Shown here piece after piece: positions 20,717 to 54,411 of a DNA stretch of 56,813 nucleotides (within the stretch, counting starts at the first letter, position 1; every line of letters begins with the position of its first letter). Made by a program: the position numbers and the translations under genes. The notes beneath the pieces were generated by a model. The model did not search any database and was not told where the DNA came from. It worked only from the letters and a program-made list of their open reading frames with translations. The DNA lies in the IMG/VR virus record IMGVR_UViG_3300035498_001578, one strand, 5' to 3'. Source of the stretch: an uncultured virus (IMG/VR IMGVR_UViG_3300035498_001578). Taxonomy: Duplodnaviria > Heunggongvirae > Uroviricota > Caudoviricetes.

Positions 20717-20717
20717 T

Positions 20718-21227: not shown

Positions 21228-21231
21228 TTCT

Positions 21232-21841: not shown

Positions 21842-22381
21842 ATGACTGTCTATAAAGTCGTTGGATATGATTCTTCTCCATATAGAGAAGAATACAAAGA
21901 TAAATTTATGTTTTATCCATCGTTTAATTGGGATTGGTATGCTTATGATTATCTATATAATTTATTATTACAGAAGCACTTAACTTCTTTGTTAGATAAA
22001 TATGATGATTTAATAACATTTAATTCCTATTCTATTAAAAATCAAAAAGCTTTTGGTGTATTGAAGAAAAAATGGTTACATCATATTATCGCAGGTAATT
22101 TAAGTATGAACGTACTTGGTAATCGTGGTAATAATTATTTGGTTTTCAATAGAGATTATATAACATTGGATGAGCTGTGTTTTGATAAGAAATTAACCAT
22201 TGCTGAAATTAGGCAGATGGAAAAAGATATAAGAAGGAATCTTGTTCTTGGAGAAGATTATAGTATCCATGAAAAGAATTTCTACTTTAAAAGAAAACAT
22301 CAAGCATTAAAGTTCATTAAGGAATTATGCGAAGCAACAGACCATAAATTTAACTTTTATGTTACTCCTGTCGTATTTTAA
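21842..22381 (+). CDS. expanded paralog family protein
   Basis: HHIIAG, LTIAEI, GEDY...FYF. Confidence 0.78.
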   Translation: MTVYKVVGYDSSPYREEYKDKFMFYPSFNWDWYAYDYLYNLLLQKHLTSLLDKYDDLITFNSYSIKNQKAFGVLKKKWLHHIIAGNLSMNVLGNRGNNYLVFNRDYITLDELCFDKKLTIAEIRQMEKDIRRNLVLGEDYSIHEKNFYFKRKHQALKFIKELCEATDHKFNFYVTPVVF

Positions 22382-22423
22382 TATTTAAAAAATATTTATA
22401 TTAAAAAAGAAAGGAAAGTAACT

Positions 22424-22981
22424 ATGATTTATTTTACAAGCGATTTGCATTTCGGGCATAAGAATGTTATAAACTTTGATAAACGCCCGTTTAAAACTAC
22501 TGAGGAGATGGATAATTTTATAATCAATAATTGGAACAAAACAGTCAGTACTAATGATACGGTTTATATATTAGGCGATATTTCTTTTCACGTTAATATA
22601 GAAGATGTTGTCAATAACATACAGCAGCTTAAAGGAAGTAAAATATTAATAAAAGGAAATCACGACAACGAATATTATAAAAAAGATATCTTTAAGGGGT
22701 GTTTTGTTGATATAAAGGATTATCACGAATTTAAATATAACCATAAACTTTTCGTTTTATCTCATTATCCTATGTTGTTTTATAATCACCAACACAGTAA
22801 TGGTATTATGTGCTATGGTCACGTACATAATTCTATTGAAGACGAATACATACAGTACTTTAAAGAATATTTAAAGGAAAAAGATATTCCGTGTAAAATG
22901 ATTAATGTAGGAATAATGAATAATGAATACAGACCCATATCAATAGATGACCTTATAAAGAAAGTAGAGGAAAAGAAATGA
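22424..22981 (+). CDS. calcineurin-like metallophosphoesterase (phage type)
   Basis: SDLHFGH, LGD, GNHD, HYP, GHVH, NVG motifs. Confidence 0.92.
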   Translation: MIYFTSDLHFGHKNVINFDKRPFKTTEEMDNFIINNWNKTVSTNDTVYILGDISFHVNIEDVVNNIQQLKGSKILIKGNHDNEYYKKDIFKGCFVDIKDYHEFKYNHKLFVLSHYPMLFYNHQHSNGIMCYGHVHNSIEDEYIQYFKEYLKEKDIPCKMINVGIMNNEYRPISIDDLIKKVEEKK

Positions 22982-23424
22982 GAAATTTATATTTTTACAT
23001 AATAGTACTTTTAATATTTGCATACTTAGAAAAAAGAAAGAGTTATTTTATACAGGAACTTGAGAAAGAAAACAAATCTGTTTCAACTGCTTGTTATGCA
23101 GCGTATACTTTACTGAATTTATTCATTGCATTAATACCATTCGTCAATCTACTGGTGCTTTATTTCATTATTTTTGAAAAACCATTGATAGATAAGGCGA
23201 TTAAAGGTATAATTAAGTCAGATTCAGAATCTCCTGTGGAAAATGAAGTGGAAAAAGAAATAATTGATGAAAAAAAACAAGAAGAAGAAATTGATGAATT
23301 ATTAGAAAAATTAAAAGTAAGTAAAGAAAAACCAAAAAGAAAAAGAAAAACTAAGCCTGCTTCTGTTGCTTTATATGAAAAGGTAACAAGTCAAGAATTG
23401 GAGGTTCAAAACCCTGAGAAATAA
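22978..23424 (+). CDS. hypothetical membrane protein
   Basis: Two hydrophobic segments and a charged tail; ATGA overlap with previous gene. Confidence 0.7.
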   Translation: MRNLYFYIIVLLIFAYLEKRKSYFIQELEKENKSVSTACYAAYTLLNLFIALIPFVNLLVLYFIIFEKPLIDKAIKGIIKSDSESPVENEVEKEIIDEKKQEEEIDELLEKLKVSKEKPKRKRKTKPASVALYEKVTSQELEVQNPEK

Positions 23425-24861: not shown

Positions 24862-24946
24862 GCGGTTGTGGTGGAATAGGTAGACACAAGGGACTTAAAA
24901 TCCCTCGCTTGTAATGAGCATACGGGTTCGACTCCCGTCAGCCGCA
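24862..24946 (+). tRNA. tRNA-Leu(TAA), long variable arm, no encoded CCA
   Basis: GCGGTTG/CAGCCGC acceptor, AGGGA-CTTAAAA-TCCCT anticodon arm, ACGGG-TTCGACT-CCCGT T arm. Confidence 0.95.
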
Positions 24947-26816: not shown

Positions 26817-28217
26817 TTAAAGTCTATTTAATATATCTTTTACCAAATCACTTCTAACACTTTCACCGTCTTTCAATGTAATCTGACAAGCTAAAGGACT
26901 ATCCTTCATTAATTCACTTGCCCAACTTAAACCATTGTTCTTTTCGTCAAGATATATATTATCTATTTGGTTTATATCTCCCAATATAATTATCTTAGTA
27001 TCAATACCAATTCTTGTTAAAATACCTTTCATTTGACTTACAGTACAGTTCTGAGCTTCATCAATAATAATAAACTGTTTATTAATACTTCTACCTCTCA
27101 TATAAGCAATAGCTTCTGCTGTAATTATATTCTGGTCAAATAAGTATTGTACCTTACCTTTTAATTCTTTCTCATTCTTATATCTTTCTTTTTCATTACT
27201 ATCTACTAAAGCTTCTAAGTTATCCATAAAGCCTCTTAAAAATGGATTTATCTTTTCTTCTTCTGTACCAGGTAAATAACCTATATCCTTACCCAAGCTC
27301 TCTACTTCTCTTGTTATTAAAATTCTTCTATAATCAGCATATCCATTAAAGGTTTGTTCTAATCCACAAGCTAATGTAATAAAATCTTTACCTGTACCGC
27401 TACCGCCTTGAAGTATAACCAATGGTATATCTTCTGCACTTCTCATCATTGCATCAATAGCAAATTTCTGACCTATATTCTTACCTGTTATACCGTATGG
27501 ATGATATTCATTTAATATAAATTCTATTTCAGTACAATCTTTTGTTATTATACCCATTAATGTAGAATTACTATCTTCTATTTTATGTATAAGCAAATAT
27601 TCATTAGGGTGGAATTCTCTGTTGCTCAATTCGCCCAATTCATTATATATATTATCTATTTCATCAATTTTAATTTTATTATCATTACTAAGAGCTTGAT
27701 TTATATAATTCTCAGATATATAGATTTCAGCTCTGCCTTTATATTCATTATCAACCTGTGTATTTTCATAATCTTCTGCTGTAATTCCCATTATGTCAGC
27801 TTTGATTTTTACATTTATATCTTTACTTATAATTATTACATTTTCGCCTGACTCTTTAAAGAATTTAGCAACCTGAATAATTCTATTATCGCTCTTAGAT
27901 TTTTCCCAACTCTCAGGTAAAGTCATATTGTAATGATTATTCTCAATCTTTAATATACCATAAGAATCATCAATTTCATTTATACGAATACCATCAATTA
28001 AAGTAGTATCTTCTAATTTACCTTTTTCTCTTAATTTATTTATTTCTCTACTTACAGCTCTTGCGTTATTATTGATATCTTTTTTACCCTTTTTAAAATT
28101 ATCAATTTCTTCAATAACAGCTTCTGTAAGTATAACTATATTATCTTCAAATTTATAAATACTTTGTGGGTCATCTAATAAGATGTTTGTATCTAATACA
28201 TAATATTTTTTATTCAT
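26817..28217 (-). CDS. phoH: PIN domain + PhoH-family ATPase (YlaK/PhoH2-like)
   Basis: VLDTNILL PIN start, GGSGTGK Walker A, GYLPG, MRGRS, IIDEAQN, GDINQID; ATG 28217 after GAGGTG. Confidence 0.93.
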   Translation of the reverse strand: MNKKYYVLDTNILLDDPQSIYKFEDNIVILTEAVIEEIDNFKKGKKDINNNARAVSREINKLREKGKLEDTTLIDGIRINEIDDSYGILKIENNHYNMTLPESWEKSKSDNRIIQVAKFFKESGENVIIISKDINVKIKADIMGITAEDYENTQVDNEYKGRAEIYISENYINQALSNDNKIKIDEIDNIYNELGELSNREFHPNEYLLIHKIEDSNSTLMGIITKDCTEIEFILNEYHPYGITGKNIGQKFAIDAMMRSAEDIPLVILQGGSGTGKDFITLACGLEQTFNGYADYRRILITREVESLGKDIGYLPGTEEEKINPFLRGFMDNLEALVDSNEKERYKNEKELKGKVQYLFDQNIITAEAIAYMRGRSINKQFIIIDEAQNCTVSQMKGILTRIGIDTKIIILGDINQIDNIYLDEKNNGLSWASELMKDSPLACQITLKDGESVRSDLVKDILNRL

Positions 28218-28382
28218 ATACACACCTCGAATGTCTTAATGTATTAAAGCAAAAAAATATTTCGCTTGTTATTATATAAATAAAAAATTGGGGTCTATAA
28301 AAAATAGAAAATATGTTTGTTTTTAAATTTATGTCTTGACATTATAAAATATTTGTGATATAATATTTTTACAGTGAAAATT

Positions 28383-34552: not shown

Positions 34553-36169
34553 CAAGAGTACCCCCACTTCAAAAAATCGTTAGATTTTTAAGTGGGGGAT
34601 GAATTGCTTTTTTAATGGAAATATATTGAAAATATATTTATTTTAGTGTATAATAATTTTATAAATTTTTAAAGAAAGGAGGATATTTTAATGTATAAAA
34701 CTGATTGCATTATTGTTAAGAATGATGATAGTAATAAAAAATTAATAGAGTATTTTAAGGAAAATTGTAAAAATGCTAAGTTATTTAAAAATAGTGTTAT
34801 TTTTCGATTAAGACAACTTTTAACAGCTAGAAATAAAGAAAATAAAGATTTAAGTGATAATGAAATTCAAGTATTAAATGAATTTGAAGCTGTTAAAAGT
34901 AGTGAACATTCTAAATATTATAAGGATTTAAGAAAGAGTGGATTTCCTACTTATAATCTTATGGACGCTGTTTTTAAAGTAAACAATAATTCAGATTACT
35001 ATAATGATAATCCTATGCAAACTACTCAAAATATCATTAAAGAATGTTTAAATGATTTTAAATCTTATAATAATGCTAAAAAAGAATACATTAAAAATTC
35101 TTCTAAATTTACGGGAACGCCTAAACTTCCTGGTTATATTAAAACTGATGAAATCAGTTTTGATATAACGAATCAAGATGCCGTTGTTTATAAAAGAGAT
35201 GATGGTACTTTTTATCTTAAATTACCTAAAACTAAATTAGTTTTAAATTTAGGTAAAAGAGAAATATCTAACTTAAAAGAAGTAACCGTAACACCTTACT
35301 ACGATACATACAAAGTATGTATCGTTAGTGAAGTGGATATAAATAAAAATTATGATTTAGATGAATCTAAAATCATAGGAATTGATTTAGGTGTAGATAA
35401 TTTTCTAACTATAAGTAATAATTGTGGATTAAATCCATTTATTATTAATGGGAAAATTCTTAAATCTAAAAATCAATTTTTTAATAAAGTTACTTCCGAT
35501 TTAAAGAGCAAACTCCCTTTAGGAGTTTATTCTTCTAAAAGATTAGAACATATTCATAAATATCGTTCTAATTATATGAATGATGCTATACATAAGATTT
35601 CTACTTATATTATAAGTTATTGTTTAACTAATAAGATAGGTACTATTGTGGTAGGAAAAAATGGCTCTTGGAAACAAGAGTCTAATATTGGTACAATAAA
35701 TAACCAAAATTTTTGTTTCCTACCACATAGTACTTTTATTTCTAAACTTAAATATAAATGTGAAATGTATAATATTAAGTTTATACTTAATGAGGAATCT
35801 TATACATCTAAATCTTCCTTTTTAGATAATGACTTTATTCCTACTTATAAAAAAGATAATACTACTAATTATACTTTTAGTGGTAAAAGAGTATATAGAG
35901 GTTTATATATATCTAAAGAAGGAATTAAACTTAATGCTGATGTAAACGGAGCTTCTAATATAATAAAAAAAGCAGTTGACACTGCTTTTGAAAATATTAA
36001 AGATTTTAGCTATCTTTACTCAAAAATAGAAAGAATCAACATTTATTAAAAGTAATTCGAGTAACATCGAATAGATGGGTGGGTGGACACCCTAAAACTC
36101 AGTTCCTGAGTTTTAGAAACTCCCACTTCAAATTGAGGCAAAGCCTCAATTAAGTGGTGAGTTATTCAT
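34553..36169 (+). mobile_element. IS200/IS605-family non-autonomous element (tnpB only, IS1341-like)
   Basis: Subterminal hairpins CCCCCACTT...AAGTGGGGG (34561-34598) and CCCACTTC...AAGTGG near 36122-36156, TTCA(T) right end; removal restores the flanking frame; ends +/-1 nt. Confidence 0.85.
34691..36049 (+). CDS. tnpB: RNA-guided endonuclease TnpB
   Basis: PKLPGY, GIDLGVDN, IVVGKN...WKQ, EESYTSK, RGLY, NADVNGA motifs. Confidence 0.93.
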   Translation: MYKTDCIIVKNDDSNKKLIEYFKENCKNAKLFKNSVIFRLRQLLTARNKENKDLSDNEIQVLNEFEAVKSSEHSKYYKDLRKSGFPTYNLMDAVFKVNNNSDYYNDNPMQTTQNIIKECLNDFKSYNNAKKEYIKNSSKFTGTPKLPGYIKTDEISFDITNQDAVVYKRDDGTFYLKLPKTKLVLNLGKREISNLKEVTVTPYYDTYKVCIVSEVDINKNYDLDESKIIGIDLGVDNFLTISNNCGLNPFIINGKILKSKNQFFNKVTSDLKSKLPLGVYSSKRLEHIHKYRSNYMNDAIHKISTYIISYCLTNKIGTIVVGKNGSWKQESNIGTINNQNFCFLPHSTFISKLKYKCEMYNIKFILNEESYTSKSSFLDNDFIPTYKKDNTTNYTFSGKRVYRGLYISKEGIKLNADVNGASNIIKKAVDTAFENIKDFSYLYSKIERINIY

Positions 36170-36379
36170 TAGTGATACGACTATTACTATTCCTAAGAAT
36201 TGCAAACGACCTTTTGAAATAAAAGGCTTTTATATAAAGAATAGAGTAGAGCAAGATATAATAAGTAATTATAAAGTATTTGCCCAAGGTAATTATTTTC
36301 AATAAGTTGTATAAATAAGGAAAAATAAGCATATAATATAAATATCTTATTAAACACTTTAAAAAGGAGATATTTAATT

Positions 36380-36790
36380 ATGCTTAGTATTAATGAAGTT
36401 GAAAGTATTACAAATGAATTTAAAAATTATCTAATAGACAATTACGTAGAAAAAGAAAAACCATCTAATATATCTTTATCAGAGATAATAAATGGTTTAA
36501 TAACAGATAAAAATATTAATTTAGAATGGTGGAGTGGATATAAGAAAAGAATTAAATCAGGAGATATTGTTTATATACCTAATATTAAAAAATTTGGTAT
36601 ATTTATTTGCCCTGCGGTTAAGAAAGATAAGTTAAGAATTAGGTTGCTTAAAAATGATGATAAAAATAGCGTTTATTCTACAGATTGGTTCTTTAATTAT
36701 GATGAAATAAAAATTGTTAAGCATAATAATAAATTAAGTAGAAACTTTACAGAAACAGAAGATAATTTTATTTATAAATATGCTCAATAA
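36380..36790 (+). CDS. hypothetical protein (possible KOW/SH3-like segment)
   Basis: AAGGAG RBS; IKSGDIVYIP motif. Confidence 0.7.
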   Translation: MLSINEVESITNEFKNYLIDNYVEKEKPSNISLSEIINGLITDKNINLEWWSGYKKRIKSGDIVYIPNIKKFGIFICPAVKKDKLRIRLLKNDDKNSVYSTDWFFNYDEIKIVKHNNKLSRNFTETEDNFIYKYAQ

Positions 36791-36804
36791 TTTTTTAAAA
36801 ACTA

Positions 36805-36833
36805 TTGACAAAAGATTGAAAGTGTGATATAAT
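36805..36833 (+). promoter_or_regulatory. sigma-A promoter of RNA module B
   Basis: TTGACA-N17-TATAAT, extended -10. Confidence 0.85.
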
Positions 36834-36837
36834 ATAA

Positions 36838-37020
36838 CTGTTCTTGAAAAAGAGAACGGTAGGGGAATTTCAACTCCTTCCTTAAATATTGTCGTTAATG
36901 GATAACAGAGGTGTCCTTGACAATAAAATTTATTGGGAATTGTTTTCAATTACAGCCTACTTTCGAGTGGCGTAGAAGGAAATTTGTGTACCAATAAAAT
37001 ATATATTATATAGTTGCAAA
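36838..37020 (+). ncRNA. tracrRNA-like scaffold RNA, copy B
   Basis: Homologous to 39551-39730 with compensatory changes; ATTTCAA (36867-36873) and AATATATATTATATAGTTGCAA (36998-37019) complementary to array-B repeat. Confidence 0.75.
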
Positions 37021-37031
37021 TAATTATATAA

Positions 37032-37216
37032 GTGCGAATCTTAAAAAAGAATATTGTTTTTATATGTTTAAAAATTAGATTCGCACCTGTAATTCTGCAC
37101 AAAATTCAATATTTTTTTAATGGTAAATGATTTTTATAAAAAGTTATTTACTTATTAGTTGTTTATTATAACAAAGCAAAACTTAAAAATTGAATATTTT
37201 TTTGTGCAATATCGCA
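37032..37216 (+). promoter_or_regulatory. type I-C-like CRISPR leader, copy B
   Basis: Inverted repeat GTGCGAATCT/AGATTCGCAC ending 131 nt before repeat 1; TTTGTGCAATATCGCA junction. Confidence 0.7.
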
Positions 37217-37367
37217 GTTGCAACTTATATATGTGTATATATTGAAATAAATTCCATATAAGCTTTTTTTTGGTAAGCCTGTAATGTTGCAATTTATATA
37301 TGTATGTATATTGAAATATATCATCAGTTAAGGATGCACTACTTGACAACAACGTTGCAACTTATAT
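37217..37367 (+). CRISPR. mini CRISPR array B: two 32-bp repeats + one truncated repeat, 2 spacers (37, 36 bp)
   Basis: GTTGCAACTTATATATGTGTATATATTGAAAT at 37217, variant at 37286, 14-nt partial at 37354. Confidence 0.85.
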
Positions 37368-37466
37368 TGCAATTTGATAAAATTAAAATAAAATTTTTAT
37401 TATTTTGTTTAATATTTCTCTTTATTTATATATATAAATATATGAAAACAAAAAGGGAGGTAGAAA

Positions 37467-37685
37467 ATGATGACAATAACTTTTAATAATATTCAAACAG
37501 TTAAGGATTTTGTAAATACGACTAATAAATGTAACGGTGATGTTGAAGTAAAATCCGATAGATATGTAGTAGACGGTAAGTCTATTATGGGTCTTTTCTC
37601 TTTAGACTTTTCTTTACCAGTAGAGGTTGTTACTCATAATCCTGATGACTTGAAAACAATTAAAGATTTCATAAATACATTGTAA
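37467..37685 (+). CDS. HPr-like phosphocarrier-fold protein (Ser46-type motif present, His15 motif absent)
   Basis: VDGKSIMGLFSL motif; 72 aa; GGGAGG RBS. Confidence 0.85.
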   Translation: MMTITFNNIQTVKDFVNTTNKCNGDVEVKSDRYVVDGKSIMGLFSLDFSLPVEVVTHNPDDLKTIKDFINTL

Positions 37686-37798
37686 TTTATTTAATTGATT
37701 ATACATTTTGCCATTTTGTAATAATCCTCCTTGCAAATAAATTACAATTTATAAAGAGCTTAGTTTTAATACTAAGTTCTTTTTTTTATTAAAAATAC

Positions 37799-37827
37799 TT
37801 GACAAATAATAAAATTTATGATATAAT
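37799..37827 (+). promoter_or_regulatory. sigma-A promoter of the effector gene
   Basis: TTGACA-N17-TATAAT, extended -10. Confidence 0.85.
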
Positions 37828-37862
37828 ATAAACAAATAAAAACATTAAAGGAGGAAACAAAA

Positions 37863-39506
37863 ATGGCTAAATCAAAGAAAGAACCTTGTTTTACAATAGA
37901 AATACCATTGAATCTTGAAAAATTCCAAATTGATTTTTTAAATAAAAAATTGGAGTCTTGTAGAAAAATATATAATGCTTTGCTTAATGTAACTTCAAGA
38001 AGGTTTGAAGAAATGAAAAGAACAAAAAGATATAGATATGCTAATGAACTTCTTGATAAACATAAAATATCTACAAAATTAGAAAGTATATCATATAGAG
38101 GTATTATTAGTAAATTGCAAAAAGAAGAAAAGGAAATTGAAAAAAAGTTAAAGGATAAGAATTTATCACAAGAAGATAGAGTTTCTTTGACCAAACAAAA
38201 AGATAATATCTCTATAAAAACACAAGATATTGCAGAAGCTGATAAAATTAAAAATGATTTGTTGAAAGAATATAAAATTTCACAAAATATTTTTTACCAA
38301 GATTTGAAAGAAATCTATAAAAAATTTAATATTAATTCTAAGACAGCAGAAGGCGTTAAAGACAATCTTTGGAGAGCTTATGACAGTATTTTATATGGAA
38401 AAGGTGAAGAATTTCATCATAAAAGATATGGTACTTTCAATACTATGATTGGTAGTCGTAATAATAAAACTATTGAATTAAAGCTTGATAAAAATTGCAT
38501 AACATTTATGGGAAAAGATTATCCTATTAAATTGCCAAAAAATAACGAATATATTAATGAGGGATTAAAACACGAAATAAAAATGTGTAGAATTGTTCGT
38601 AAGAATATAAAAAAGAAAGATAGATTTTTTGTACAGGTAATTTTGATAGGTTATCCACCTACAAAATGCAATCGCCTTATGGGTAATGGTAAGGTTGGTA
38701 TTGATATTGGCACTCAAACTATTGCAGTATCTAGTGATAGAGAATTAAAATTGGAAGAGCTTGCAAAAGGAGCACAAGATATTCAAAATCAGCTCAGAAT
38801 AATTAACAGAAAAATGGATAGAAGTAGAAGAGCTACTAACCCTGATAACTTTAATGAAGATGGAACTTTTGTTACATTAAAAGAAGGAGAAAAGCGTAAG
38901 TGGAAACAATCAAACAACTATAAAAAATTAGCAGCTGAAAGAAAAGAACTTTTCAGAAAACAAGCCGATTTAAGAACACTTTCACACGAAACACTTGCTA
39001 ACGAAATTATTGGAATGGGCGATGAGTTTTATGTAGAAGATATGGATTTCAAAGCATTACAGAAAAAGGCTAAAAAGACTACTAAAAATTCTAAGGGTAA
39101 GTTTAACCGTAAAAAGAGGTTTGGTAAATCTTTGGCTAATAAAGCTCCTTCAAAGGCATTGGATATCTTAAATAGGAAACTTGGTTATTTCAATAAAGAA
39201 CTTATTAAAATAAACACTAAAAAAGCTAAAGCAAGTCAATATAACCACGTAGATAATACTTACGTTAAAATGCCATTAAGCAAAAGGTCTAAAACTATTG
39301 ATGGTAAAAAGTATCAACGTGACTTATATGCAGCTTATTGTATTAGTCACATCAATCCTGATTTGGAAACTTTTAATAGGCAGGAATGTATTAACGGTTT
39401 TGCTAATTTCGATAAAATGCACGATGAAGTAATCAGAGAGCTTAAAAATGATAATTCTACCCATAAGGTATCAAGTTTAGGGTTGAAAGATTTTTCAGAA
39501 TTATAA
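37863..39506 (+). CDS. CRISPR-associated TnpB/Cas12f-like type V effector (547 aa)
   Basis: RuvC-I VGIDIG, RuvC-II FYVEDMDF, RuvC-III QRDLYAA; TnpB-like N-terminus (CRKIYNALL); no CxxC pair; flanked by two arrays; no IS hairpin ends seen. Confidence 0.82.
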   Translation: MAKSKKEPCFTIEIPLNLEKFQIDFLNKKLESCRKIYNALLNVTSRRFEEMKRTKRYRYANELLDKHKISTKLESISYRGIISKLQKEEKEIEKKLKDKNLSQEDRVSLTKQKDNISIKTQDIAEADKIKNDLLKEYKISQNIFYQDLKEIYKKFNINSKTAEGVKDNLWRAYDSILYGKGEEFHHKRYGTFNTMIGSRNNKTIELKLDKNCITFMGKDYPIKLPKNNEYINEGLKHEIKMCRIVRKNIKKKDRFFVQVILIGYPPTKCNRLMGNGKVGIDIGTQTIAVSSDRELKLEELAKGAQDIQNQLRIINRKMDRSRRATNPDNFNEDGTFVTLKEGEKRKWKQSNNYKKLAAERKELFRKQADLRTLSHETLANEIIGMGDEFYVEDMDFKALQKKAKKTTKNSKGKFNRKKRFGKSLANKAPSKALDILNRKLGYFNKELIKINTKKAKASQYNHVDNTYVKMPLSKRSKTIDGKKYQRDLYAAYCISHINPDLETFNRQECINGFANFDKMHDEVIRELKNDNSTHKVSSLGLKDFSEL

Positions 39507-39517
39507 TTTAAAAACTA

Positions 39518-39546
39518 TTGACAAAGTTTAAAAAGTATGGTATAAT
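39518..39546 (+). promoter_or_regulatory. sigma-A promoter of RNA module A
   Basis: TTGACA-N17-TATAAT, extended -10, 11 nt after the effector stop. Confidence 0.85.
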
Positions 39547-39550
39547 ATAA

Positions 39551-39730
39551 TTGTCCTTGAAAAAAGGACGGTAGGGGAATTCCAACTCCTTCCTTAAATA
39601 TTACCGTTAATAGATATCAGAGGTATCTTTGGTAATAAAATTTATTGGGAATTATCTTCAATTACAAAGGCTTTCGAGCCAAGTAGAAGGAGATTTGCGT
39701 ACCAATAAAGCATACTTATATATAAGTGCG
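39551..39730 (+). ncRNA. tracrRNA-like scaffold RNA, copy A
   Basis: Stems GTCCTT/AAGGAC, TATTACC/GGTAATA, TTTATTGG/CCAATAAA, GGCT-TTCG-AGCC; ATTCCAA (39579-39585) complementary to repeat end TTGGAAT; partial anti-repeat at the 3' end. Confidence 0.78.
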
Positions 39731-39911
39731 AAACTCTAAAGTTTAATACTATTTTCGAGTAGGTTAAAATAAGTTTCGCACCAATAAAATTATACAAAAG
39801 TTAATATTCTCTTTACAATAAATAACTTTTGTAAATTGTTATTTTATATGTTATTTGTTTAAATTGAGTGAATAATAATTAAAAATTGAATATTTTTTGT
39901 ATAATTTTGCA
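39726..39911 (+). promoter_or_regulatory. type I-C-like CRISPR leader, copy A
   Basis: Inverted repeat GTGCGAAACT/AGTTTCGCAC ending 131 nt before repeat 1; AAAAATTGAATATTTTTTGT shared with copy B. Confidence 0.7.
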
Positions 39912-40347
39912 GTTGCAATATGTATATGTGTATGTATTGGAATATAAGCAAATGCACCATCACCAAGCACGTAAGAGTTGCAATATGTATATGTGTATGT
40001 ATTGGAATAAATGGGATATATCTAAAATATTCGCTTGTTATAGTTGCAATATGTATATGTGTATGTATTGGAATTTCCACACCGTTCTTTTTTGCGGCTG
40101 TTTTAAGCAGGTTGCAATATGTATATGTGTATGTATTGGAATAGCCTGTGAAACAATTAATTTATCTTTATTAGCAAGTTGCAATATGTATATGTGTATG
40201 TATTGGAATATCAGTTACTTCAATTAATTTCATTGCTTAACACATTTCTTTGTTGCAATATGTATATACGTATGTATTGGAATATCTGAGTATCTATCAA
40301 TATCAAGTGTATATTGTTGCAATATGTGTATGCGTATGTATTGGAAT
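39912..40347 (+). CRISPR. CRISPR array A: seven 32-bp repeats, 6 spacers (33, 34, 36, 35, 42, 32 bp)
   Basis: GTTGCAATATGTATATGTGTATGTATTGGAAT at 39912, 39977, 40043, 40111, 40178; variants at 40252 and 40316 (trailer end). Confidence 0.97.
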
Positions 40348-40590
40348 ATACTAAATTATTTATGTATGCGGATTGAAATTGATTTGCTTTTTTGTAAGAG
40401 ATGCCATAAGGAGCATTATGTCACATATATGTATTTTTTCCATTAAAACATCACAATACATACATATATGTGTGGGTTAAAACAATAAATAAATTTTTGT
40501 GGTGCGAATGCCAATTAAACATTAGCTGTATTGCAAAAAATTTATAAAATAAAAGAATTAATACAAACAATTAGAAAGGAATGATATTAA

Positions 40591-40914
40591 ATGGCTGAAT
40601 TTGAAGATATTAATATAGATTTATCTAAACGTACTCCTGCCGAATGGTCGGATATCTACCATTTAAAACTTTATAATTCTCCTCCTCGTCAGCTTTGGAC
40701 TGAATTTGAATGGGCTTATAATCTTCCTAATTTGGATTATCAATATATCCTCATAAATGATTCTTCCGAAGAAGCAGAGGAAATGGAACTTAGAGCTTTT
40801 GATATTAAGAATCTTATTTTCCATCTTGCTGATAAAAGTGAAAAAGAAATTCTTAAAACAAAATATATTGAAACTGAATGGATAAGAAAAAAACTTATTG
40901 TGAATGATTTTTAA
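40591..40914 (+). CDS. hypothetical protein
   Basis: AAAGGA RBS; 107 aa. Confidence 0.7.
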   Translation: MAEFEDINIDLSKRTPAEWSDIYHLKLYNSPPRQLWTEFEWAYNLPNLDYQYILINDSSEEAEEMELRAFDIKNLIFHLADKSEKEILKTKYIETEWIRKKLIVNDF

Positions 40915-40938: not shown

Positions 40939-42300
40939 ATGTCTAATAAAAAACAAAAAATGATTATAAAATACGCAATGTCTCAGGTAAATAAATTTAA
41001 AACTAATAAGATAAAAGAAATGGACACTAACAATGTCCTATTTTCTGCTTTAAAAAATTATACTATTACAAAAGATAACTCAGTATTAAACCTTGTAAAT
41101 AAAGTAAAAGATATCCTTAATACATATTATCCTTCTAATGAATCTAACGAAGTAAATGTTATGATAAATATTCTTTCTGATAAGATTTTGGAAGTTAATA
41201 ATGGCATTCATAATGAAATAATTCCTAATGATATAAAATCTTATATAGATGCTTGTATAGAAGACCTTGTAACCGAAAGTTTTGTTAATGAAATTAAAAC
41301 AGAGTGTAATGCTTCTAATATTACATTAAATGATAAGTTTTCTTTATTCGACTTAATTTCAGAAGGTAATATTAGTGACCTTACTGCTATGTATTTAACA
41401 TTATTATGTTATATCTCTTGTTCTAAACAAATCTCTTATTCTCGCAATAATAAAGATTTAAATAAAATAAAATTTACTGATGAAGATGCTATAAGCGTAA
41501 TTTTCTCTTTTGTTTTAGCTTCCGTAAATTTTATTGCTAGTAATTTTTATGAAAGAGATTATGAAAGAGGTTGTTCTGATACTGAAAAAAAATTCTTTGA
41601 AGAAAAAAAGATTATAGTGGATGACTTTAAGGAAAAAATGATTTCACTTGAAAAAGCCCAACAAGAAATAACTACTCTTAAAGATAAGTATACCAAATTG
41701 CAAAATTCTTTAGAAGCAAGAGTAGATAAAAAGGTAGATAAGATTAGTAAATCCTTAACCGAAGAAAAGAAATCTTTAGCTTCTGAGAATAATAGATTAA
41801 AACTTAAAATTCAGGAGCTGCAAGAGAAAAATAATAATCTCCAATCTATTGTAGATAAGCAGGCTAAACAAACCATTAATAACGAAAAGATTGAAACTCT
41901 TAATAAGACTATTAAGAAACTTACAGAACAGAATAATAATTTAAGGAAATTAACTTCTAATCCTGTTATTGAAAAAACTATTAATAATATAGAACAAGAT
42001 TTCCCTGAGGATAAAACTATTGATATGAATAGAAGTATTCTTTTTATTGGTGGTCATACGACTACTCTTGAAAACTTATGTTCTATTTATTCTAAGGCTG
42101 ATTGTGTTTCTAATGAAACTACTGAGCTTAATCAATCTTATATGAATAGTTTTGATGGTATTGTATTCTTAACCGATTTCTTATCTCATAACCTCTATAA
42201 GAAGATTAAGAGATTAGCTGATAAATATAATATTAAATACATACATTGTAAAAAGAATAATGTCGATTTAATTATCGACGATATTGAAAATAACTTTTAA
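40939..42300 (+). CDS. coiled-coil protein with C-terminal DUF2325-like domain
   Basis: Heptad region followed by ILFIGGH...DGIVFLTDFLSH...IKYIHC. Confidence 0.8.
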   Translation: MSNKKQKMIIKYAMSQVNKFKTNKIKEMDTNNVLFSALKNYTITKDNSVLNLVNKVKDILNTYYPSNESNEVNVMINILSDKILEVNNGIHNEIIPNDIKSYIDACIEDLVTESFVNEIKTECNASNITLNDKFSLFDLISEGNISDLTAMYLTLLCYISCSKQISYSRNNKDLNKIKFTDEDAISVIFSFVLASVNFIASNFYERDYERGCSDTEKKFFEEKKIIVDDFKEKMISLEKAQQEITTLKDKYTKLQNSLEARVDKKVDKISKSLTEEKKSLASENNRLKLKIQELQEKNNNLQSIVDKQAKQTINNEKIETLNKTIKKLTEQNNNLRKLTSNPVIEKTINNIEQDFPEDKTIDMNRSILFIGGHTTTLENLCSIYSKADCVSNETTELNQSYMNSFDGIVFLTDFLSHNLYKKIKRLADKYNIKYIHCKKNNVDLIIDDIENNF

Positions 42301-49578: not shown

Positions 49579-50094
49579 CTACTGAAATTGATTATCTGTA
49601 CATACATAATAACCTTCTTTGTATATATAATTCATTTCATTACAAAACTTGTAAGCATCTACTTCGTTGTCAAAGTAAAATTCATTGGAATAAGTTTCAT
49701 AATCTTTACCTTTAACAAAGTTTTCTTTTATTGTAGAATAAATATAATTAATTTCTTCCTTAGAAAGAAGTTGTTTCTTATATAATTCATGAAAAGAATA
49801 AGAATGAACACCATTATAATGGTCTATTATTCTTAAAAACTTAGTCTTTGCTATACCGTAAATTGAAGAATTATCTATTTCTAAATCAAGCCCTTTCATA
49901 GCTAAGAAAAATTCCATTTCTTTTACTTTACTCATAAAATTTTCACAGGTTATAATGTAATGTTTAAATTGAATATAACTATAATCTTGTATAAGTTCTT
50001 TTATTCTTTCGGACGGACAATTTAGAATTATTTCCATATTTTCCATATTTGTAAGTTTTATATTACTATTTCTAATGTAAAATAAATTATTCAT
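49579..50094 (-). CDS. expanded paralog family protein
   Basis: FFLAMKG, LSKEEI, GKDY...FYF. Confidence 0.78.
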   Translation of the reverse strand: MNNLFYIRNSNIKLTNMENMEIILNCPSERIKELIQDYSYIQFKHYIITCENFMSKVKEMEFFLAMKGLDLEIDNSSIYGIAKTKFLRIIDHYNGVHSYSFHELYKKQLLSKEEINYIYSTIKENFVKGKDYETYSNEFYFDNEVDAYKFCNEMNYIYKEGYYVCTDNQFQ

Positions 50095-50106
50095 ATAAAC
50101 TCCTTT

Positions 50107-50628
50107 CTATAAAAAAAGTTGAAGCACATTAATATCTTGGATATAATAATTTGTGTTATCTGATTTTATTCTTTTAATTATATCATCGCAAGTTTTATAA
50201 TTGTTAAAACATAATTCTTCTGTTGCAACATAATCTATTTTTTCTTTATATTTAGAAAAAACATTATGTAACTTCCTTACTTCCTTTAAACTAAGAATCT
50301 TATCTCTATATAATGCAAGAGTGGAAATATAGAAACAATCATTAGAAATAAAAGAAAGTTTGCTCTTAAAACAACTTACTGTTAATTCCCCTGTAATTAT
50401 TTTATGGAATAATTGCTGTTTTATTTCATAAAATATCTTTTCGTTATTAATTTTGTAATAATAAAAAGACATTGATTTGTTTAGAATAGATTGAATATAT
50501 TCATCAGATAAATTATTATCTTTTAAAAACTTTTCATTACTAAGAAATTTTGTATCAATAAAAGAAATATCGTTTAATGTGTGTAAATAATCTTGGTAAT
50601 GGTAATATATTCTATATATCTTTTTCAA
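50107..50628 (-). CDS. expanded paralog family protein
   Basis: LFHKIITG, LSLKEV, HNVFSKY. Confidence 0.78.
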   Translation of the reverse strand: MKKIYRIYYHYQDYLHTLNDISFIDTKFLSNEKFLKDNNLSDEYIQSILNKSMSFYYYKINNEKIFYEIKQQLFHKIITGELTVSCFKSKLSFISNDCFYISTLALYRDKILSLKEVRKLHNVFSKYKEKIDYVATEELCFNNYKTCDDIIKRIKSDNTNYYIQDINVLQLFL

Positions 50629-50648
50629 TTATATCTCTCCTCTCTAAA

Positions 50649-51191
50649 TTAAAGTGTTGGTCTTACCTCTGCTATACAATAGTCTTTTTCACTATATGAT
50701 GAATCACTCTCTTTTATTGTTTTAATTATTCTTTCACAGGAAAGACGATTTGTAAAGTATAAATCTTCGTGTTGAAAATAATCTTCGTCTGCTTTATACT
50801 TAGAAAAAACATTATGTACTTTCTTTATTTCTTCTAAAGTAAGAATGTTTTTCTTATATAAACTGTAAGTATTGGTAAGAATACCTGTATAAGTTATAAA
50901 AATAAGAACATTAGGTCTTAGTTTGTAATCTTTAGTCCAACGGGCTATTTTCAAATCTCTTGCAACAATCCTATGAAATAGAACCAATTTTATGTCATCA
51001 ATTATTTTTTCATTATATATTTTATAACTATGAAAATCTTGACTGTTTGTAAAAAAATCTTGAATATTGTTATTTTGACTACAATCAAGTAGCATTTTTC
51101 TAATAGAGTTTGTATCAAGGTCAATAAATTCAAGATAACGATATTGATTATTACATATATTTTTGAGTTTTATTGAATATAGTTCTTCCAT
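50649..51191 (-). CDS. expanded paralog family protein
   Basis: LFHRIVA, LTLEEI, HNVFSKY. Confidence 0.78.
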   Translation of the reverse strand: MEELYSIKLKNICNNQYRYLEFIDLDTNSIRKMLLDCSQNNNIQDFFTNSQDFHSYKIYNEKIIDDIKLVLFHRIVARDLKIARWTKDYKLRPNVLIFITYTGILTNTYSLYKKNILTLEEIKKVHNVFSKYKADEDYFQHEDLYFTNRLSCERIIKTIKESDSSYSEKDYCIAEVRPTL

Positions 51192-51203
51192 ATATAGCCC
51201 CTT

Positions 51204-51722
51204 TTAATGGTACTTACTAATTTTGTAAATTACATCTTCATTAGGATATTTATTTATTTTTTCTATTGCTTTTTTAGCTGAACTCTTGGTTATGAAAAAC
51301 AATTGTTCAAAAATAGCATAATCTTTTCCTCTTTTGTAGTTTAAGAAAACATTATGAAGATTATTTATTTCTTTTAAAGTAAGAACCTTATTTCTATACA
51401 TATTAATTGTTGAGCTGTAACAATAGATACCTTGTGTAAAGCAAAGGTTGTTAGTAAATAAATCTATCTTTAAATCCCCTGAAATAATCTTATGAAAAAA
51501 TAGTTTTTTAATATCCTCATAAATCTTTTCGTTAATAACAGTGTATGTATAAAAAGAAACTGTATCTTCTAATATACATTGTATATCGAACTTAGTAAGG
51601 TTATTCGCTTTTAATAATTCTTCTCTGTAGAAAAAGTCAGAATTAATAAAACGAATATCATCTTTTCTTATTTCAAGAAAGTTGTTTCCATTTACTGCGT
51701 ATATATTATATAACGGTTTCAA
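51204..51722 (-). CDS. expanded paralog family protein
   Basis: FFHKIISG, LTLKEI, GKDY. Confidence 0.78.
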   Translation of the reverse strand: MKPLYNIYAVNGNNFLEIRKDDIRFINSDFFYREELLKANNLTKFDIQCILEDTVSFYTYTVINEKIYEDIKKLFFHKIISGDLKIDLFTNNLCFTQGIYCYSSTINMYRNKVLTLKEINNLHNVFLNYKRGKDYAIFEQLFFITKSSAKKAIEKINKYPNEDVIYKISKYH

Positions 51723-51729
51723 AAGTTAG

Positions 51730-52332
51730 TCACTTCCTTTGAGGTATTTTTATAGGCTCTATGTTGTTTGGATGATAAAGGAACAAATTATCGCTACTAA
51801 TATTGGCAATATTAAAACCATTATACCTATAATCAGTTAAAATTTTTCTACCCATAAGGTGGGTTACGGCTTTAGCATCTTTGTATTTTTCAAAACAAAC
51901 ATATTCATCTATAACTTCATAATCAATTCCTTTTCCATAATTAGAAAAGATGTTATGTAACTTTTTTATTTCTTTTAAAGTAATAACTTTGTTTCTAAAC
52001 AATGAAAGGGTATTTAAATGAATATATTTTTTACAAATAAAAGCTATGCAATTTGCATTGTTTTCATTGTACGTGTTTATTTTGAAATCACCTGAAATAA
52101 TTCTATTAAAGAATAGCGAAATAATTTCTTTGGTTATTTCATCATTATAGATATTATACTTATAGAAAGAGAAAATCTTATCTAAAATAAGATTCTTTTC
52201 TTCTTCGGTAATACCACCTGTTTCTAAAGTATAGGATAATTCTTTTGTCATAAATTCTTTTGTCACAACAAGTTTAGTTAATATGTTTGATTTATTATAA
52301 GCCTGATAATCTATACAAAATAAGTTTTTCAT
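51730..52332 (-). CDS. expanded paralog family protein
   Basis: FFNRIISG, ITLKEI, GIDY; promoter upstream. Confidence 0.78.
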   Translation of the reverse strand: MKNLFCIDYQAYNKSNILTKLVVTKEFMTKELSYTLETGGITEEEKNLILDKIFSFYKYNIYNDEITKEIISLFFNRIISGDFKINTYNENNANCIAFICKKYIHLNTLSLFRNKVITLKEIKKLHNIFSNYGKGIDYEVIDEYVCFEKYKDAKAVTHLMGRKILTDYRYNGFNIANISSDNLFLYHPNNIEPIKIPQRK

Positions 52333-52458
52333 TGTTCTTCTCCTCTCTTTTTTAAGTAACTATATTATATCATAAATTTTGTTATTTGTCAAGAATATAT
52401 TAAGAACTTTTATATATTAAAAACCCTTAGTAGTTAATCGTTCTACTAAGGGTAATTG

Positions 52459-53262
52459 TTATTCAATAAAATATATAATTATTGTGCCGTCACTGGCTTT
52501 TTTGTATGACATACAATCTCCGTCTGCAATATTCATTTCATTAAACAAACTAAAGCAATAATCAAAATATGAATTAATATTTTCTAAATCTTCATTAGTA
52601 ATAAACTCTTTATTGCAAAGAGTTTCAATAAGACGATATTCTTTTTTATCAAAATCAAACTCCAATCTATCGTCTTTATAAACTTGAAGAAGATTTCTAC
52701 TTAATTCGCTTTCTCCATAATGAACACTACAATAATTCATTGAACTGTTTTTTGTATCAGTATAACATTGTTTAATAAAGTCAAATTTACTATCAAAAAT
52801 TTTATATAATGCTACGCTTAAAATCTGAAATACATCATTTTCATTTTCAAAAACCTCTATGATTTGAGGAAGATATGGGTTGCTTAGATTTTTTATTATT
52901 GTATCAATGTAATATGATAAATAATTGTCCGAACCCATAAAAGCATTATATATAAGGTTTTTTATTTTTTCAGAAAAGACAAACTCAGTAAAATAATTGT
53001 AGTTCAATAAATCATTATTTAATTTTTCTACAATACTATTATGCGGTGCTTTGACATACAACATATTAGAAGTGTTTAAAATGCTCTGATATTTGTGTTC
53101 TTCGTAATTTTCTTCTTTATAAACTTCAATAAGATGTTTTTCAAATAGATTGTTTTTATCAAAAATAAGTTCTGTTCTATAATTATTTAATATATCTTTT
53201 TTCTTTGTGGGAAAATCCATAATAGTATAATTATTTTCGGTTGTATATACTTTAATTTTCAA
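52459..53262 (-). CDS. hypothetical protein
   Basis: Probable TTG start at 53262 after AAGGAGG. Confidence 0.7.
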   Translation of the reverse strand: MKIKVYTTENNYTIMDFPTKKKDILNNYRTELIFDKNNLFEKHLIEVYKEENYEEHKYQSILNTSNMLYVKAPHNSIVEKLNNDLLNYNYFTEFVFSEKIKNLIYNAFMGSDNYLSYYIDTIIKNLSNPYLPQIIEVFENENDVFQILSVALYKIFDSKFDFIKQCYTDTKNSSMNYCSVHYGESELSRNLLQVYKDDRLEFDFDKKEYRLIETLCNKEFITNEDLENINSYFDYCFSLFNEMNIADGDCMSYKKASDGTIIIYFIE

Positions 53263-53275
53263 ATTAAATTCCTCC

Positions 53276-53782
53276 TTAATAGAATCTATAATAAACCCGT
53301 TCAAATACTAAAGAATTTACTCTAAAAATAATATAAGGATACCAGTTTTTAGAACACTTATGAAAAGTATCATTAACAAGTTGTATATCTCTTAGTCTTT
53401 TAAATAAGATGTATTTATCTGTACTATAATCAACACCTTCTTTAAAGTTTTGTTCGATATATTCTTGTATTTTTCCCATTTCTTTCAATGTTATTTTATT
53501 ATTTGTATAAGCTCTTAATAATGTTGTTCCACAAACCATAAGATAGTTTTCTTTATCAAGTTTAAATGTTAAGTCCCTGCCATTAAGTAAATCCATAAAG
53601 AACATTTGCTTTAAATAATTAAGAATTTCAGTATTGTTGATAATATATATATTTGAAAACATAACATTTTTCTTAGGTATAGCATTGATTTTATCTATTA
53701 CTTCTTCATATTTTTCAAGTTCTTTGAATGTGACTAATTCTCTATAACCTGTATGTCTTAATACATAACGATTATTTGCCAT
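53276..53782 (-). CDS. expanded paralog family protein
   Basis: FFMDLLNG, ITLKEM, NFKEGVDY. Confidence 0.78.
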   Translation of the reverse strand: MANNRYVLRHTGYRELVTFKELEKYEEVIDKINAIPKKNVMFSNIYIINNTEILNYLKQMFFMDLLNGRDLTFKLDKENYLMVCGTTLLRAYTNNKITLKEMGKIQEYIEQNFKEGVDYSTDKYILFKRLRDIQLVNDTFHKCSKNWYPYIIFRVNSLVFERVYYRFY

Positions 53783-53804
53783 AATAAATCCCCTTTTCTA
53801 TAAA

Positions 53805-54323
53805 TTATACACTACAATGCAAAATACTATATAGTGTATTCTTGCAAGGATAATTCTTTATCATTAATGCAACCTTTCTTGCAAGTCTATATTGTTTGAA
53901 GAATAATTCTTCATACGTAGAGTAATCTTTTTCATCATATTTAGAAAAGATATTATTTATTTTCTTTACTTCTCTTAAAGTAAGGATTTTATTTTTATAT
54001 AACTTAAAAGTATTTATAGTTGTTTTATTGTCTTCTTTGATGAATAATTCATTTTTATTTATTTCGCCATTAAGGATTTTAACAAAAAATAAAGCTGTTA
54101 TATCGTTAATTATATTCTCGTTGGAAGTTGTATAATTATAAAACCTTATGACATTTTTAGTGTTAAGAATTTTTTGAACATCGTTTGCTGAAAGATTATT
54201 TTTCTTCAATAATTCTTTGCAGGTTATATAATCCGTATTAACATAAGCTTTTTTGTATATTCGCATTTCCTCAAAAAGTGGTTGTTCATAATCAAAGAAA
54301 AATATTTTATATAAAAAACTCAT
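53805..54323 (-). CDS. expanded paralog family protein
   Basis: FFVKILNG, LTLREV, FSKY; promoter upstream. Confidence 0.78.
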   Translation of the reverse strand: MSFLYKIFFFDYEQPLFEEMRIYKKAYVNTDYITCKELLKKNNLSANDVQKILNTKNVIRFYNYTTSNENIINDITALFFVKILNGEINKNELFIKEDNKTTINTFKLYKNKILTLREVKKINNIFSKYDEKDYSTYEELFFKQYRLARKVALMIKNYPCKNTLYSILHCSV

Positions 54324-54411
54324 TTATTATCCTCCTTTTTAATTGATTGTATTATACCATAAAATTTATTGTTTGTCAAGATTTTAAAAAAAGGGAGAAT
54401 AAATCTCCCTT

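Follow-up and report, generated by a model that had tools for sequence, protein, structure and literature searches.

The 56,813-nucleotide record of an uncultured virus (IMG/VR IMGVR_UViG_3300035498_001578; Caudoviricetes), which we call the window, contains a gene for a TnpB-like nuclease, the effector. Two similar structured RNAs lie on either side of it, each followed by its own clustered regularly interspaced short palindromic repeats (CRISPR) array. The locus raises the question of what these RNAs are, and why one nuclease should be accompanied by two of them. We name the RNAs scaffold A and scaffold B, and each scaffold together with its array module A or module B. It is quite likely that the scaffolds are paralogous trans-activating CRISPR RNAs (tracrRNAs) that descend from the right-end guide RNA of an IS200/IS605-type TnpB and serve the single 547-aa nuclease between them. 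This view builds on homology, conservation of structure, complementarity and covariation, all of which can be read directly from the sequences. A covariance model, R1, was built from the two window copies. The modules and the gene between them have the following parts.

36805..36833, plus strand: promoter B; TTGACA, 17-nt spacer, TATAAT, with TG before the -10 element; 12/12 consensus match
36840..36997, plus strand: scaffold B core; fold z-score -4.8, 201.6 bits with R1, covariation with copy A; stem 1 (36840-36857), pseudoknot hairpin (36858-36881) with the loop 7-mer ATTTCAA (36867-36873), helix 4/5 domain, and helix 6-9 domain closed by TTATTGGG/ACCAATAA
36998..37031, plus strand: tail B, directly 3′ of helix 6; anti-repeat of near full length
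37032..37086, plus strand: hairpin B; 10 pairs, arms GTGCGAATCT/AGATTCGCAC, interior of 35 nt
37087..37216, plus strand: leader B; about 70% identity with leader A, with a conserved TTAAAAATTGAATATTTTTT block before repeat 1
37217..37385, plus strand: CRISPR array B; 32-nt repeats at 37217 and 37286, a degenerate third from 37354, spacers of 37 and 36 nt
37799..37827, plus strand: effector promoter; 12/12 consensus match
37863..39506, plus strand: effector gene, 547 aa; RuvC nuclease of predicted TnpB/Cas12 fold
39518..39546, plus strand: promoter A; 12/12 consensus match
39553..39708, plus strand: scaffold A core; fold z-score -4.9, 197.3 bits with R1; stem 1 (39553-39569), pseudoknot hairpin (39570-39593) with the loop 7-mer ATTCCAA (39579-39585), helix 4/5 and helix 6-9 domains
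39709..39725, plus strand: tail A; anti-repeat with a 17-nt deletion relative to tail B
39726..39781, plus strand: hairpin A; arms GTGCGAAACT/AGTTTCGCAC
39782..39911, plus strand: leader A
39912..40347, plus strand: CRISPR array A; seven repeats of 32 nt and six spacers of 32-42 nt

Compensating changes preserve the scaffold fold

Folded separately, copies A and B adopt the same architecture, and each is far more stable than its shuffled versions (z-scores of -4.9 and -4.8). The pairs common to both minimum-free-energy folds, 56 in number and including a 10-pair hairpin after the tail, were taken as the shared structure. Between the copies, both sides have changed in seven of these pairs, and in two a one-sided change has produced a different standard pair; all pairs remain intact. 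All 112 cells of the shared structure are paired; sliding the 3′ partner by 1-3 columns lowers this to 45-54% and leaves no double changes. The observed covariation value was reached by 2 of 500 shuffles, which is the floor for two sequences. Within the core, 14 of 23 substitutions fall in paired columns, with pairing kept in all 14, and the copies are 85% identical there as against about 70% in the leader DNA. The hairpin after the tail contributes one pair that is changed on both sides. A sequence-only reading of this DNA had listed four stems with compensatory differences (for example, GTCCTT/AAGGAC in A and GTTCTT/GAGAAC in B), and all four are present and in place. The long-range pairing of TCCTTC with GAAGGA that it also offered has to be given up, because neither strand varies and GAAGGA is already part of helix 7, a covarying helix with one compensated pair in the window and double changes at six of six pairs in the family. 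No Rfam family matched the scaffold RNA at the gathering score in the window, or at E ≤ 1 in 36000-40500.

Each scaffold is predicted to pair with its own repeat in two places

The 7-mers ATTTCAA (36867) and ATTCCAA (39579) make up seven nucleotides of the 8-nt loop of the second hairpin, directly before helix 4. In both modules they are exact complements of the last seven nucleotides (nt 26-32) of the module's own repeat, as had been noticed from the letters alone: loop A (AUUCCAA) faces the repeat end UUGGAAU and loop B (AUUUCAA) faces UUGAAAU. From the window's own 7-mer counts, a repeat-matching 7-mer is expected by chance 0.034-0.039 times per scaffold. The tails had been described as anti-repeats that track their own repeat, and comparison with random window segments and shuffled repeats bears this out. 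Tail B pairs with nt 2-24 of repeat B through 21 bp (-18.1 kcal/mol), a value equalled by 6 of 2000 random segments of the window and by 11 of 1000 shuffled repeats; tail A pairs with nt 10-24 of repeat A through 14 bp (-13.0 kcal/mol), equalled by 13 of 2000 segments and 49 of 1000 shuffled repeats. Both duplexes lie in the same register, with repeat nt 25 as a linker and the spacer directly after nt 32. Each of the two contacts contains a covarying pair between the RNAs. In the loop, C with repeat G29 in A corresponds to U with repeat A29 in B; in the tail, nt 5 with repeat nt 23 is C:G in A and U:A in B. A degenerate repeat remnant on the plus strand (40350..40381), directly after the last repeat of array A, ends in TTGAAAT as repeat B does, which points to G29 of repeat A and its partner C in the loop as derived states.

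The sequence-only reading had called the two scaffold-repeat pairs semi-orthogonal, which stands for loop A and fails for loop B. Loop A is predicted to reject repeat B, with -0.3 kcal/mol compared with -6.2 kcal/mol for its own repeat and with the central pair lost. Loop B accepts repeat A through a G-U pair at -3.3 kcal/mol, close to the -3.8 kcal/mol for its own repeat. For the tails, the advantage of the own repeat amounts to only 1.6-2.3 kcal/mol. The predicted orthogonality is one-way. We also considered arrays read from the minus strand and rejected this orientation. The loops fail to pair with the repeat complements (0.1 to 0.8 kcal/mol), and in three of four combinations the tails pair much better with the plus-strand repeats than with their complements. 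The plus-strand orientation also fits the conserved leaders upstream and the degenerate repeats downstream; the last two repeats of array A carry 2-3 changes.

The scaffolds are homologous to the right-end guide RNA of mobile TnpB relatives

To place the scaffold among known RNAs, loci of genes related to the effector were searched with R1. A match lies immediately 3′ of the related gene's stop codon in 42 of 80 loci from genomes and in 35 of 80 from viruses (E ≤ 1e-3); the genome loci contain 43 matches at this threshold. Loci L081-L088 were without a match at E ≤ 1. Of the relatives with a match, at least one set lies within an IS200/IS605 element. This element encodes a Y1 (IS200-type) transposase (PF01797, 2.3e-42), and five copies of it in one assembly share one sequence from 3458 to 5618, with divergence setting in immediately after ..GAGTTTCAG. 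Because R1 matches follow the genes of the relatives and relatives sit in an IS200/IS605 element, the scaffold is, by this sequence comparison, a homologue of the right-end guide RNA (right-end RNA (reRNA) or omegaRNA) of an IS200/IS605 TnpB lineage. For the RNA region of locus L020, Rfam returned only two chance-level matches (E 0.27 and 0.37), below the gathering score.

Alignment A5, which has 45 rows and was fitted to the model, carries double changes at 37 of 46 pairs; pairing is kept in 90% of its cells, compared with 37-51% in the slid controls. Since A5 leans towards the structure of its model, the analysis was repeated with a MAFFT alignment that was not fitted to it. This alignment has 37 of the 43 matches; L016 and L024 were omitted because of a long 3′ insertion, as were four duplicates of L025. 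The same helices were recovered from it by RNAalifold, and 27 of 40 pairs are compensatory.

The relatives also account for the two contacts with the repeat. After the last shared helix (..TAAGAACC), their RNA carries a short hairpin (such as CAACG-loop-CGTTG), followed by GAGTGTCAG or a variant of it. The five identical copies diverge directly after the final G. This point is the transposon end, and the guide therefore starts there. The six nucleotides before the final G complement the loop of the hairpin directly preceding helix 4, forming a covarying pseudoknot with the variants UGACAC/GUGUCA, UGAAAC/GUUUCA, UGAUAC/GUAUCA and UGAUGC/GCGUCA. On the MAFFT alignment, 99.1% of the cells of this pseudoknot are paired; its central pair is C-G in 21, A-U in 11, U-A in two and U-G in one of the 37 sequences and is unpaired in two. 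The terminal hairpin shows double changes in four of six pairs. In the window, the scaffolds stop with the last shared helix and show neither the terminal hairpin nor the ..GAGTKTCAG end. Since the pseudoknot and terminal hairpin of the relatives correspond to the two duplexes that each window scaffold forms with its repeat, the proposal that the scaffolds are tracrRNAs with a short duplex at the repeat 3′ end and a second, distal duplex is well supported by this comparison. The order within the repeat unit (3′ arm, linker of 1-2 nt, pseudoknot strand, spacer) matches the presumed ancestral order, except that the hairpin is opened in its loop. In this scheme the scaffold is the tracrRNA, and it is completed by the repeat.

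The effector is nested among transposon-borne TnpBs

The effector protein is a diverged member of the TnpB family; NF040570 matches it at 1.1e-17, below the cut-off. It has 2807 relatives at E ≤ 0.001. The protein P0002 shares 64% identity with it, and the other relatives among the 120 listed share 41-45% and are mostly about 486 aa long; the sole name printed among these 120 is ‘transposase’ (P0082). The best identity is 41% in phage records and 40% in plasmid records. A search of viral contigs with the effector protein gave no match, and the P0002 locus was not found in metagenome or viral contigs. The RuvC triad is intact, with D281, E392 and D487 invariant in 21 aligned sequences. None of these sequences has a cysteine between S458 and D487, so there is no zinc finger at this place. 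In residues 455-487, mobile and array-associated members alike lack the cysteine zinc finger that the nucleic-acid-binding domain of TnpB/Cas12f proteins usually has, and H462 and several lysines are invariant instead.

An AlphaFold model of the effector (predicted local distance difference test score 78.6, predicted template modelling score 0.50) gave its best fold matches to the TnpB of ISFba1 (8iaz, E 2.4e-11), Cas12p (9jfs, 2.7e-11), CnCas12f1 (6e-10) and the TnpB of ISDra2 (8h1j, 9e-10). Cas12m2, AsCas12f (E 3e-8) and LaTranC (rank 19, E 1.7e-7) follow, all of the matches having 11-17% identity. By sequence, no PDB chain matched at E ≤ 1, and a profile of the effector reached only RdCas12n (9j09, E 7.6e-4) in the PDB. 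PADLOC reported Cas12u4 (6.8e-11) and a Cas12f model that matches residues 266-325 only; both are weak. Judged from the structure model, the effector adopts a TnpB/Cas12 fold without being a member of any solved subtype.

A tree was computed under LG+G4 from 48 rows, selected out of about 170 loci; interrupted frames led to the removal of L011 and L066. The window and P0002 group together (support 100), and next to them stand L081 and a clade made up of L144, L064, L063, L073, L065 and L068 (support 93). The node that joins the window and P0002, L081 and this array-bearing clade is weak (86, drawn open). In the approximately unbiased test a single clade of the eight, a group named after seeing the tree, was not rejected (p 0.32). 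Identity to its relatives, the Y1-bearing multi-copy element and the tree all place the effector within transposon-borne TnpBs.

Relatives with arrays and with fused scaffolds

Arrays in the fetched loci were found by a simple repeat scan and by reading the tree neighbours. An array follows the gene in L064, L065 and L068, whose repeats start with GTTGCAA like those of the window and end with GCCAG, in L063 and L073 (2-3 repeats), and in the viral contig L144 (4510-5300; 35% identity; nine repeats of 33 nt). All six array-bearing relatives have a hairpin before helix 4 with a loop that complements the 3′ end of the repeat. In L144, the loop UUGAACC and the repeat end GGUUCGG form 7 bp, two of them G-U; loop and repeat end are GGCA/UGCC in L064, L065, L063 and L073, and GGCU/AGCC in L068. 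With its filters off, R1 matches L064 (17.7 bits) and L144 (17.1 bits) and aligns their scaffolds to those of the window. With default filters, it matched none of L064, L065 and L068, and the scaffolds of L065 and L068 stayed unmatched with the filters off too. Hairpins with GCGAA/TTCGC arms were also seen in L144 (4514-4558), L064 (5497-5540), L065 and L073. They lie after the tail in the window and between stop codon and scaffold in these four loci. The hairpin after the tail could be a 3′-end or processing signal.

A further arrangement is found in two Ruminococcus assemblies, at L016 (3600-3990) and L024 (1330-1790). There, a consensus promoter is followed by the scaffold, an enlarged terminal hairpin and the pseudoknot strand, and then by 2-3 further copies of the 3′ unit with spacers of about 35 nt, all upstream of a TnpB-like gene. 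This arrangement is a fusion of scaffold and array.

Proposed origin of the two modules

We propose that the ancestral form was a single RNA in the order scaffold, short terminal hairpin, 6-nt pseudoknot strand (pairing to the loop of the 5′ hairpin) and guide. This RNA would have been split within the loop of the terminal hairpin. The scaffold would retain the 5′ arm as its tail, the anti-repeat, and the CRISPR repeat would provide the 3′ arm (nt 2-24 in B, nt 10-24 in A), followed by a single linker nucleotide and, as nt 26-32, the strand of the pseudoknot. The ancestral fold would be rebuilt once the tail pairs with the repeat and the hairpin 2 loop with the 3′ end of the repeat, and the spacer would take the place of the transposon guide. 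The module of scaffold and array would then have been duplicated, after which compensating changes would have kept the stems and both repeat contacts of each copy. We infer that the scaffold RNAs would be expressed, processed, bound by the effector and used in DNA cleavage.

Several observations weigh against this proposal. Each covariation between the RNAs of the window is a single event, as there are two copies only. The tail duplexes are A/U-rich, and for this reason the support for tail A is moderate (its energy is equalled by 49 of 1000 shuffled repeats). Tail A is, moreover, predicted to form a duplex of -12.7 kcal/mol with the complement of repeat B. Alignment A5 was fitted to the model that it supports. 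R1 aligns the 5′ hairpin of the relatives now to stem 1 and now to hairpin 2, which leaves the homology of this hairpin ambiguous, and the strand polarity of the pseudoknot is opposite, UUGAAA being in the scaffold loop in the mobile relatives and at the repeat end in the window. The GCCAG-type pseudoknots of the array-bearing relatives are weaker evidence, because they comprise only 4-5 bp in loops predicted at 3-7 nt. Among the window ORFs (open reading frames) searched, none encodes Cas1, Cas2 or Cas4. Protospacers were found neither in the window at up to six mismatches nor, at a significant level, in 50,697 phage records. A 24-nt part of one of the eight spacers, the one covered by that search, had no match in viral contigs.

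Transcription and alternative explanations

A consensus scan of 36000-40700 found only three perfect promoter matches, namely those before scaffold B, the effector gene and scaffold A, and the first stem of both scaffolds coincides with the predicted start point of such a 12/12 promoter. The same region holds neither a strong promoter before either array nor a terminator-like site after either tail. Two further features lie between array B and the effector gene:

37467..37685, plus strand: 72-aa ORF between array B and the effector; weak similarity to HPr (PF00381 at E 1.4e-4, below the cut-off; NF010354 at 5e-5)
37753-37782: terminator-like site after the 72-aa ORF; the sole good one in the region according to the terminator scan

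Because no promoter or terminator match separates them, each scaffold may share a transcript with its array and may pair with the first repeat in cis. In folds from the scaffold start through the first spacer, the tail pairs with repeat 1 in both modules (z-scores of -4.9 and -6.4), so the primary transcript may look like the ancestral RNA carrying a greatly enlarged terminal loop, comparable to L016 and L024. Weak promoters in the leaders may nevertheless exist, since the DNA is 65-70% A+T, and 36 promoter-like sites were found where 34.6 are expected.

These data lend weight to the explanation that competes best with separate tracrRNAs, namely that the scaffold is the 5′ part of one long RNA consisting of scaffold, hairpin, leader and array. 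The first spacer would then be used in cis like a transposon guide, and the later units in trans or not at all. The restriction of strong promoters to the scaffolds, the lack of a terminator-like site between scaffold and array and the predicted cis pairing in both modules agree with such a precursor, and L016 and L024 have exactly this fused form, with 2-3 further repeat-spacer units. However, seven repeats in array A point to use in trans, a 3′ end could be set by the conserved hairpin behind the tail, and weak leader promoters may contribute. As it relies on the same pairing scheme, this explanation is a variant of the tracrRNA proposal rather than its opposite. We regard it as unlikely, while giving it serious weight. 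A more specific picture combines elements of both. The locus would be an intermediate still at work, in which one nuclease has two diverged guide modules, each giving a contiguous, transposon-like precursor of scaffold, anti-repeat, long loop, repeat 1 and spacer 1; with its first spacer this precursor would act in cis, with the others in trans, and the C:G/U:A swap in the pseudoknot would give loop A a real selectivity for its own array. Taken as a whole, this combination seems rather doubtful. If it were true, this one family, with the L016 and L024 fusions and the mobile relatives, would show every stage from a transposon guide to a split tracrRNA and crRNA (CRISPR RNA).

With both modules taken as functional tracrRNA-array pairs, the state of module B has to be explained. 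Array B has two spacers only, its two full repeats differ from each other at three positions and its third repeat is truncated; the module lies upstream of the effector, with another ORF and a terminator-like site in between. Module B could on this evidence be a decaying duplicate without function, leaving module A to work alone. Yet scaffold B keeps every shared pair and a 12/12 promoter, its loop and tail match its own repeat and not that of A, and its anti-repeat is longer than that of A. The leader has drifted to about 70% identity, while the core stands at 85% with only pair-preserving changes in its stems. Decay of module B is therefore improbable in our view.

The pairing partner of the loop 7-mer could also be sought within the scaffold. 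In copy B, the stem 1 loop UUGAAA complements the hairpin 2 loop UUUCAA, as a kissing contact inside the scaffold in place of the repeat contact would demand. In copy A, however, the hairpin 2 loop is UUCCAA and the stem 1 loop is unchanged, which gives an A-C mismatch, and the same change restores a perfect match to repeat A. A kissing contact is very improbable, and we keep to pairing between loop and repeat. Finally, the clear homology to the right-end RNA of the relatives might suggest that the scaffolds are guide RNAs of still-mobile TnpB elements with arrays as unrelated neighbours, but this is hardly credible given that the window copies lack the relatives' terminal hairpin and ..GAGTKTCAG end, start from their own promoters after a stop codon or, in one copy, without a gene in front, and both precede arrays with complementary repeats, and that no Y1 transposase was found among the window ORFs searched.

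Genomic context

The ORFs of the window are mostly without Pfam families. Among them are a PIN-PhoH fusion protein (26817-28223, minus strand), a glucosaminidase-like lysin (897-1394) and genes for tRNA-Gln (2546-2617) and tRNA-Leu (24862-24946), and because of these the window is probably a large phage or other mobile element. Two long runs of back-to-back ORFs of 136-200 aa without a Pfam family are found at 14843-23424 (plus strand) and 49579-55457 (minus strand); one cross-comparison detected no similarity between the two runs. Two proteins carry a C-terminal DUF2325, one just downstream of array A (40939-42300, E 2.4e-9) and one at 55691-56803 (E 1.1e-7). The interval 34691-36190 has a second TnpB of 452 aa (NF040570, 2.7e-39), unrelated to the effector, and after it a strongly structured stretch at 36055-36190 (z-score -6.6) without a match to an Rfam family, which is probably this TnpB's own guide RNA. 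We considered the 452-aa protein as a partner of module B and dismissed it, as it has no sequence relation to the effector (E 0.62) and has its own structured RNA. ORF136 (36380-36790) was considered as the remnant of a second effector and likewise dismissed for lack of similarity (E 0.36).

Significance and comparison with known systems

The mechanism proposed here is known in kind, since both the splitting concept of TranC and the trans pseudoknot of Cas12p are in print. The lineage with its RNA family, the duplicated module and the natural compensated pair appear to be new. We found no account of the lineage or RNA family, of a duplicated module around one effector or of a natural compensated pair in the published literature; the supplements of the TranC work may list the lineage. 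Natural loci with two tracrRNAs were also absent from the literature found, judging by titles and abstracts. The locus offers an independent lineage in which every part of the split has its counterpart, at nucleotide resolution, in the putative ancestral RNA. It also presents a natural experiment, in which two paralogous modules preserve their stems and both inter-RNA contacts by compensating changes. The same family holds still-mobile relatives as well as scaffolds fused to a mini-array. In practical terms, the pairing indicates the tail-repeat junction for the design of a single guide RNA, and it points to seven nucleotides that would set scaffold-repeat specificity for a 547-aa nuclease.

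As in type V systems with tracrRNA and crRNA, an array lies beside an effector of TnpB/Cas12 fold with a RuvC domain, and a non-coding RNA carries an anti-repeat. Guides of Cas12f combine a short duplex of the repeat 3′ end beside the guide with a longer distal duplex, a multi-stem tracrRNA and a miniature effector. The window shares this two-duplex layout, and the fold of its effector matches CnCas12f1 and AsCas12f (E 6e-10 to 3e-8). However, identity is 11-15%, the Cas12f model of PADLOC covers 60 residues and the window effector has no zinc-finger cysteines. We therefore rejected membership in Cas12f (type V-F), as no PDB chain matches by sequence at E ≤ 1 and the zinc finger is absent.

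Cas12p, or ‘Cas12 hacker’ (PDB 9jfs), is the second-best fold match. It is a phage-encoded, TnpB-close protein of 500-700 aa. The last nucleotides of its repeat are reported to form a trans pseudoknot, R:AR-1, with the tracrRNA, a contact that the authors describe as usual for Cas12 tracrRNAs (bioRxiv 10.1101/2025.01.20.633832). The window effector differs from it by having only 13% identity, and Cas12p has a zinc finger and a thioredoxin-binding insert. The Cas12p pseudoknot has 4 bp (AAAC:UUUG) compared with 7 bp in the window.

The omegaRNA or reRNA of the ISDra2 and ISFba1 TnpBs is a right-end RNA that starts at the 3′ end of the gene, with a pseudoknot reported to be essential for cleavage (PMC13639567). 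These TnpBs are among the best fold matches of the effector; in contrast to their RNA, the window RNA is split, promoter-driven and without an Rfam match at E ≤ 1. Among named CRISPR effectors, Cas12n (type V-U4) shows the best sequence-level similarity to the window effector, which is weak and partial. Its tracrRNA is reported to lie within the 3′ tail of the effector gene (bioRxiv 10.64898/2026.03.27.714800), whereas scaffold A starts 47 nt past the stop codon, from its own promoter.

The closest parallel is TranC with its ‘functional RNA splitting’ (Jin et al., Cell 2025), in which the right-end RNA is reported to be divided into a tracrRNA and a crRNA (PMC13565253, PMC13639567, bioRxiv 10.64898/2026.03.27.714800), a step that has been proposed as the origin of type V CRISPR. 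TranC arrays are reported to have repeats of 32-38 bp, and one member to be phage-borne (bioRxiv 10.64898/2026.03.27.714800). TranC effectors are guided by a CRISPR RNA as well as by a contiguous right-end RNA; on this point the window shows the predicted cis pairing of the tail with repeat 1. Like the reported TranC systems, the window has a TnpB-like effector from among transposon TnpBs, an adjoining small CRISPR array and a divided ancestral right-end RNA, and its tracrRNA and repeat map to the terminal hairpin and pseudoknot of the relatives. LaTranC itself (PDB 9jfq/9jfo) is a fold-level match with 13% identity. Since the match is at the level of the fold only and no PDB chain is found by sequence, the window represents a lineage other than LaTranC. 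It further differs in having two diverged scaffold-plus-array modules for one effector. The window system fits the TranC concept.

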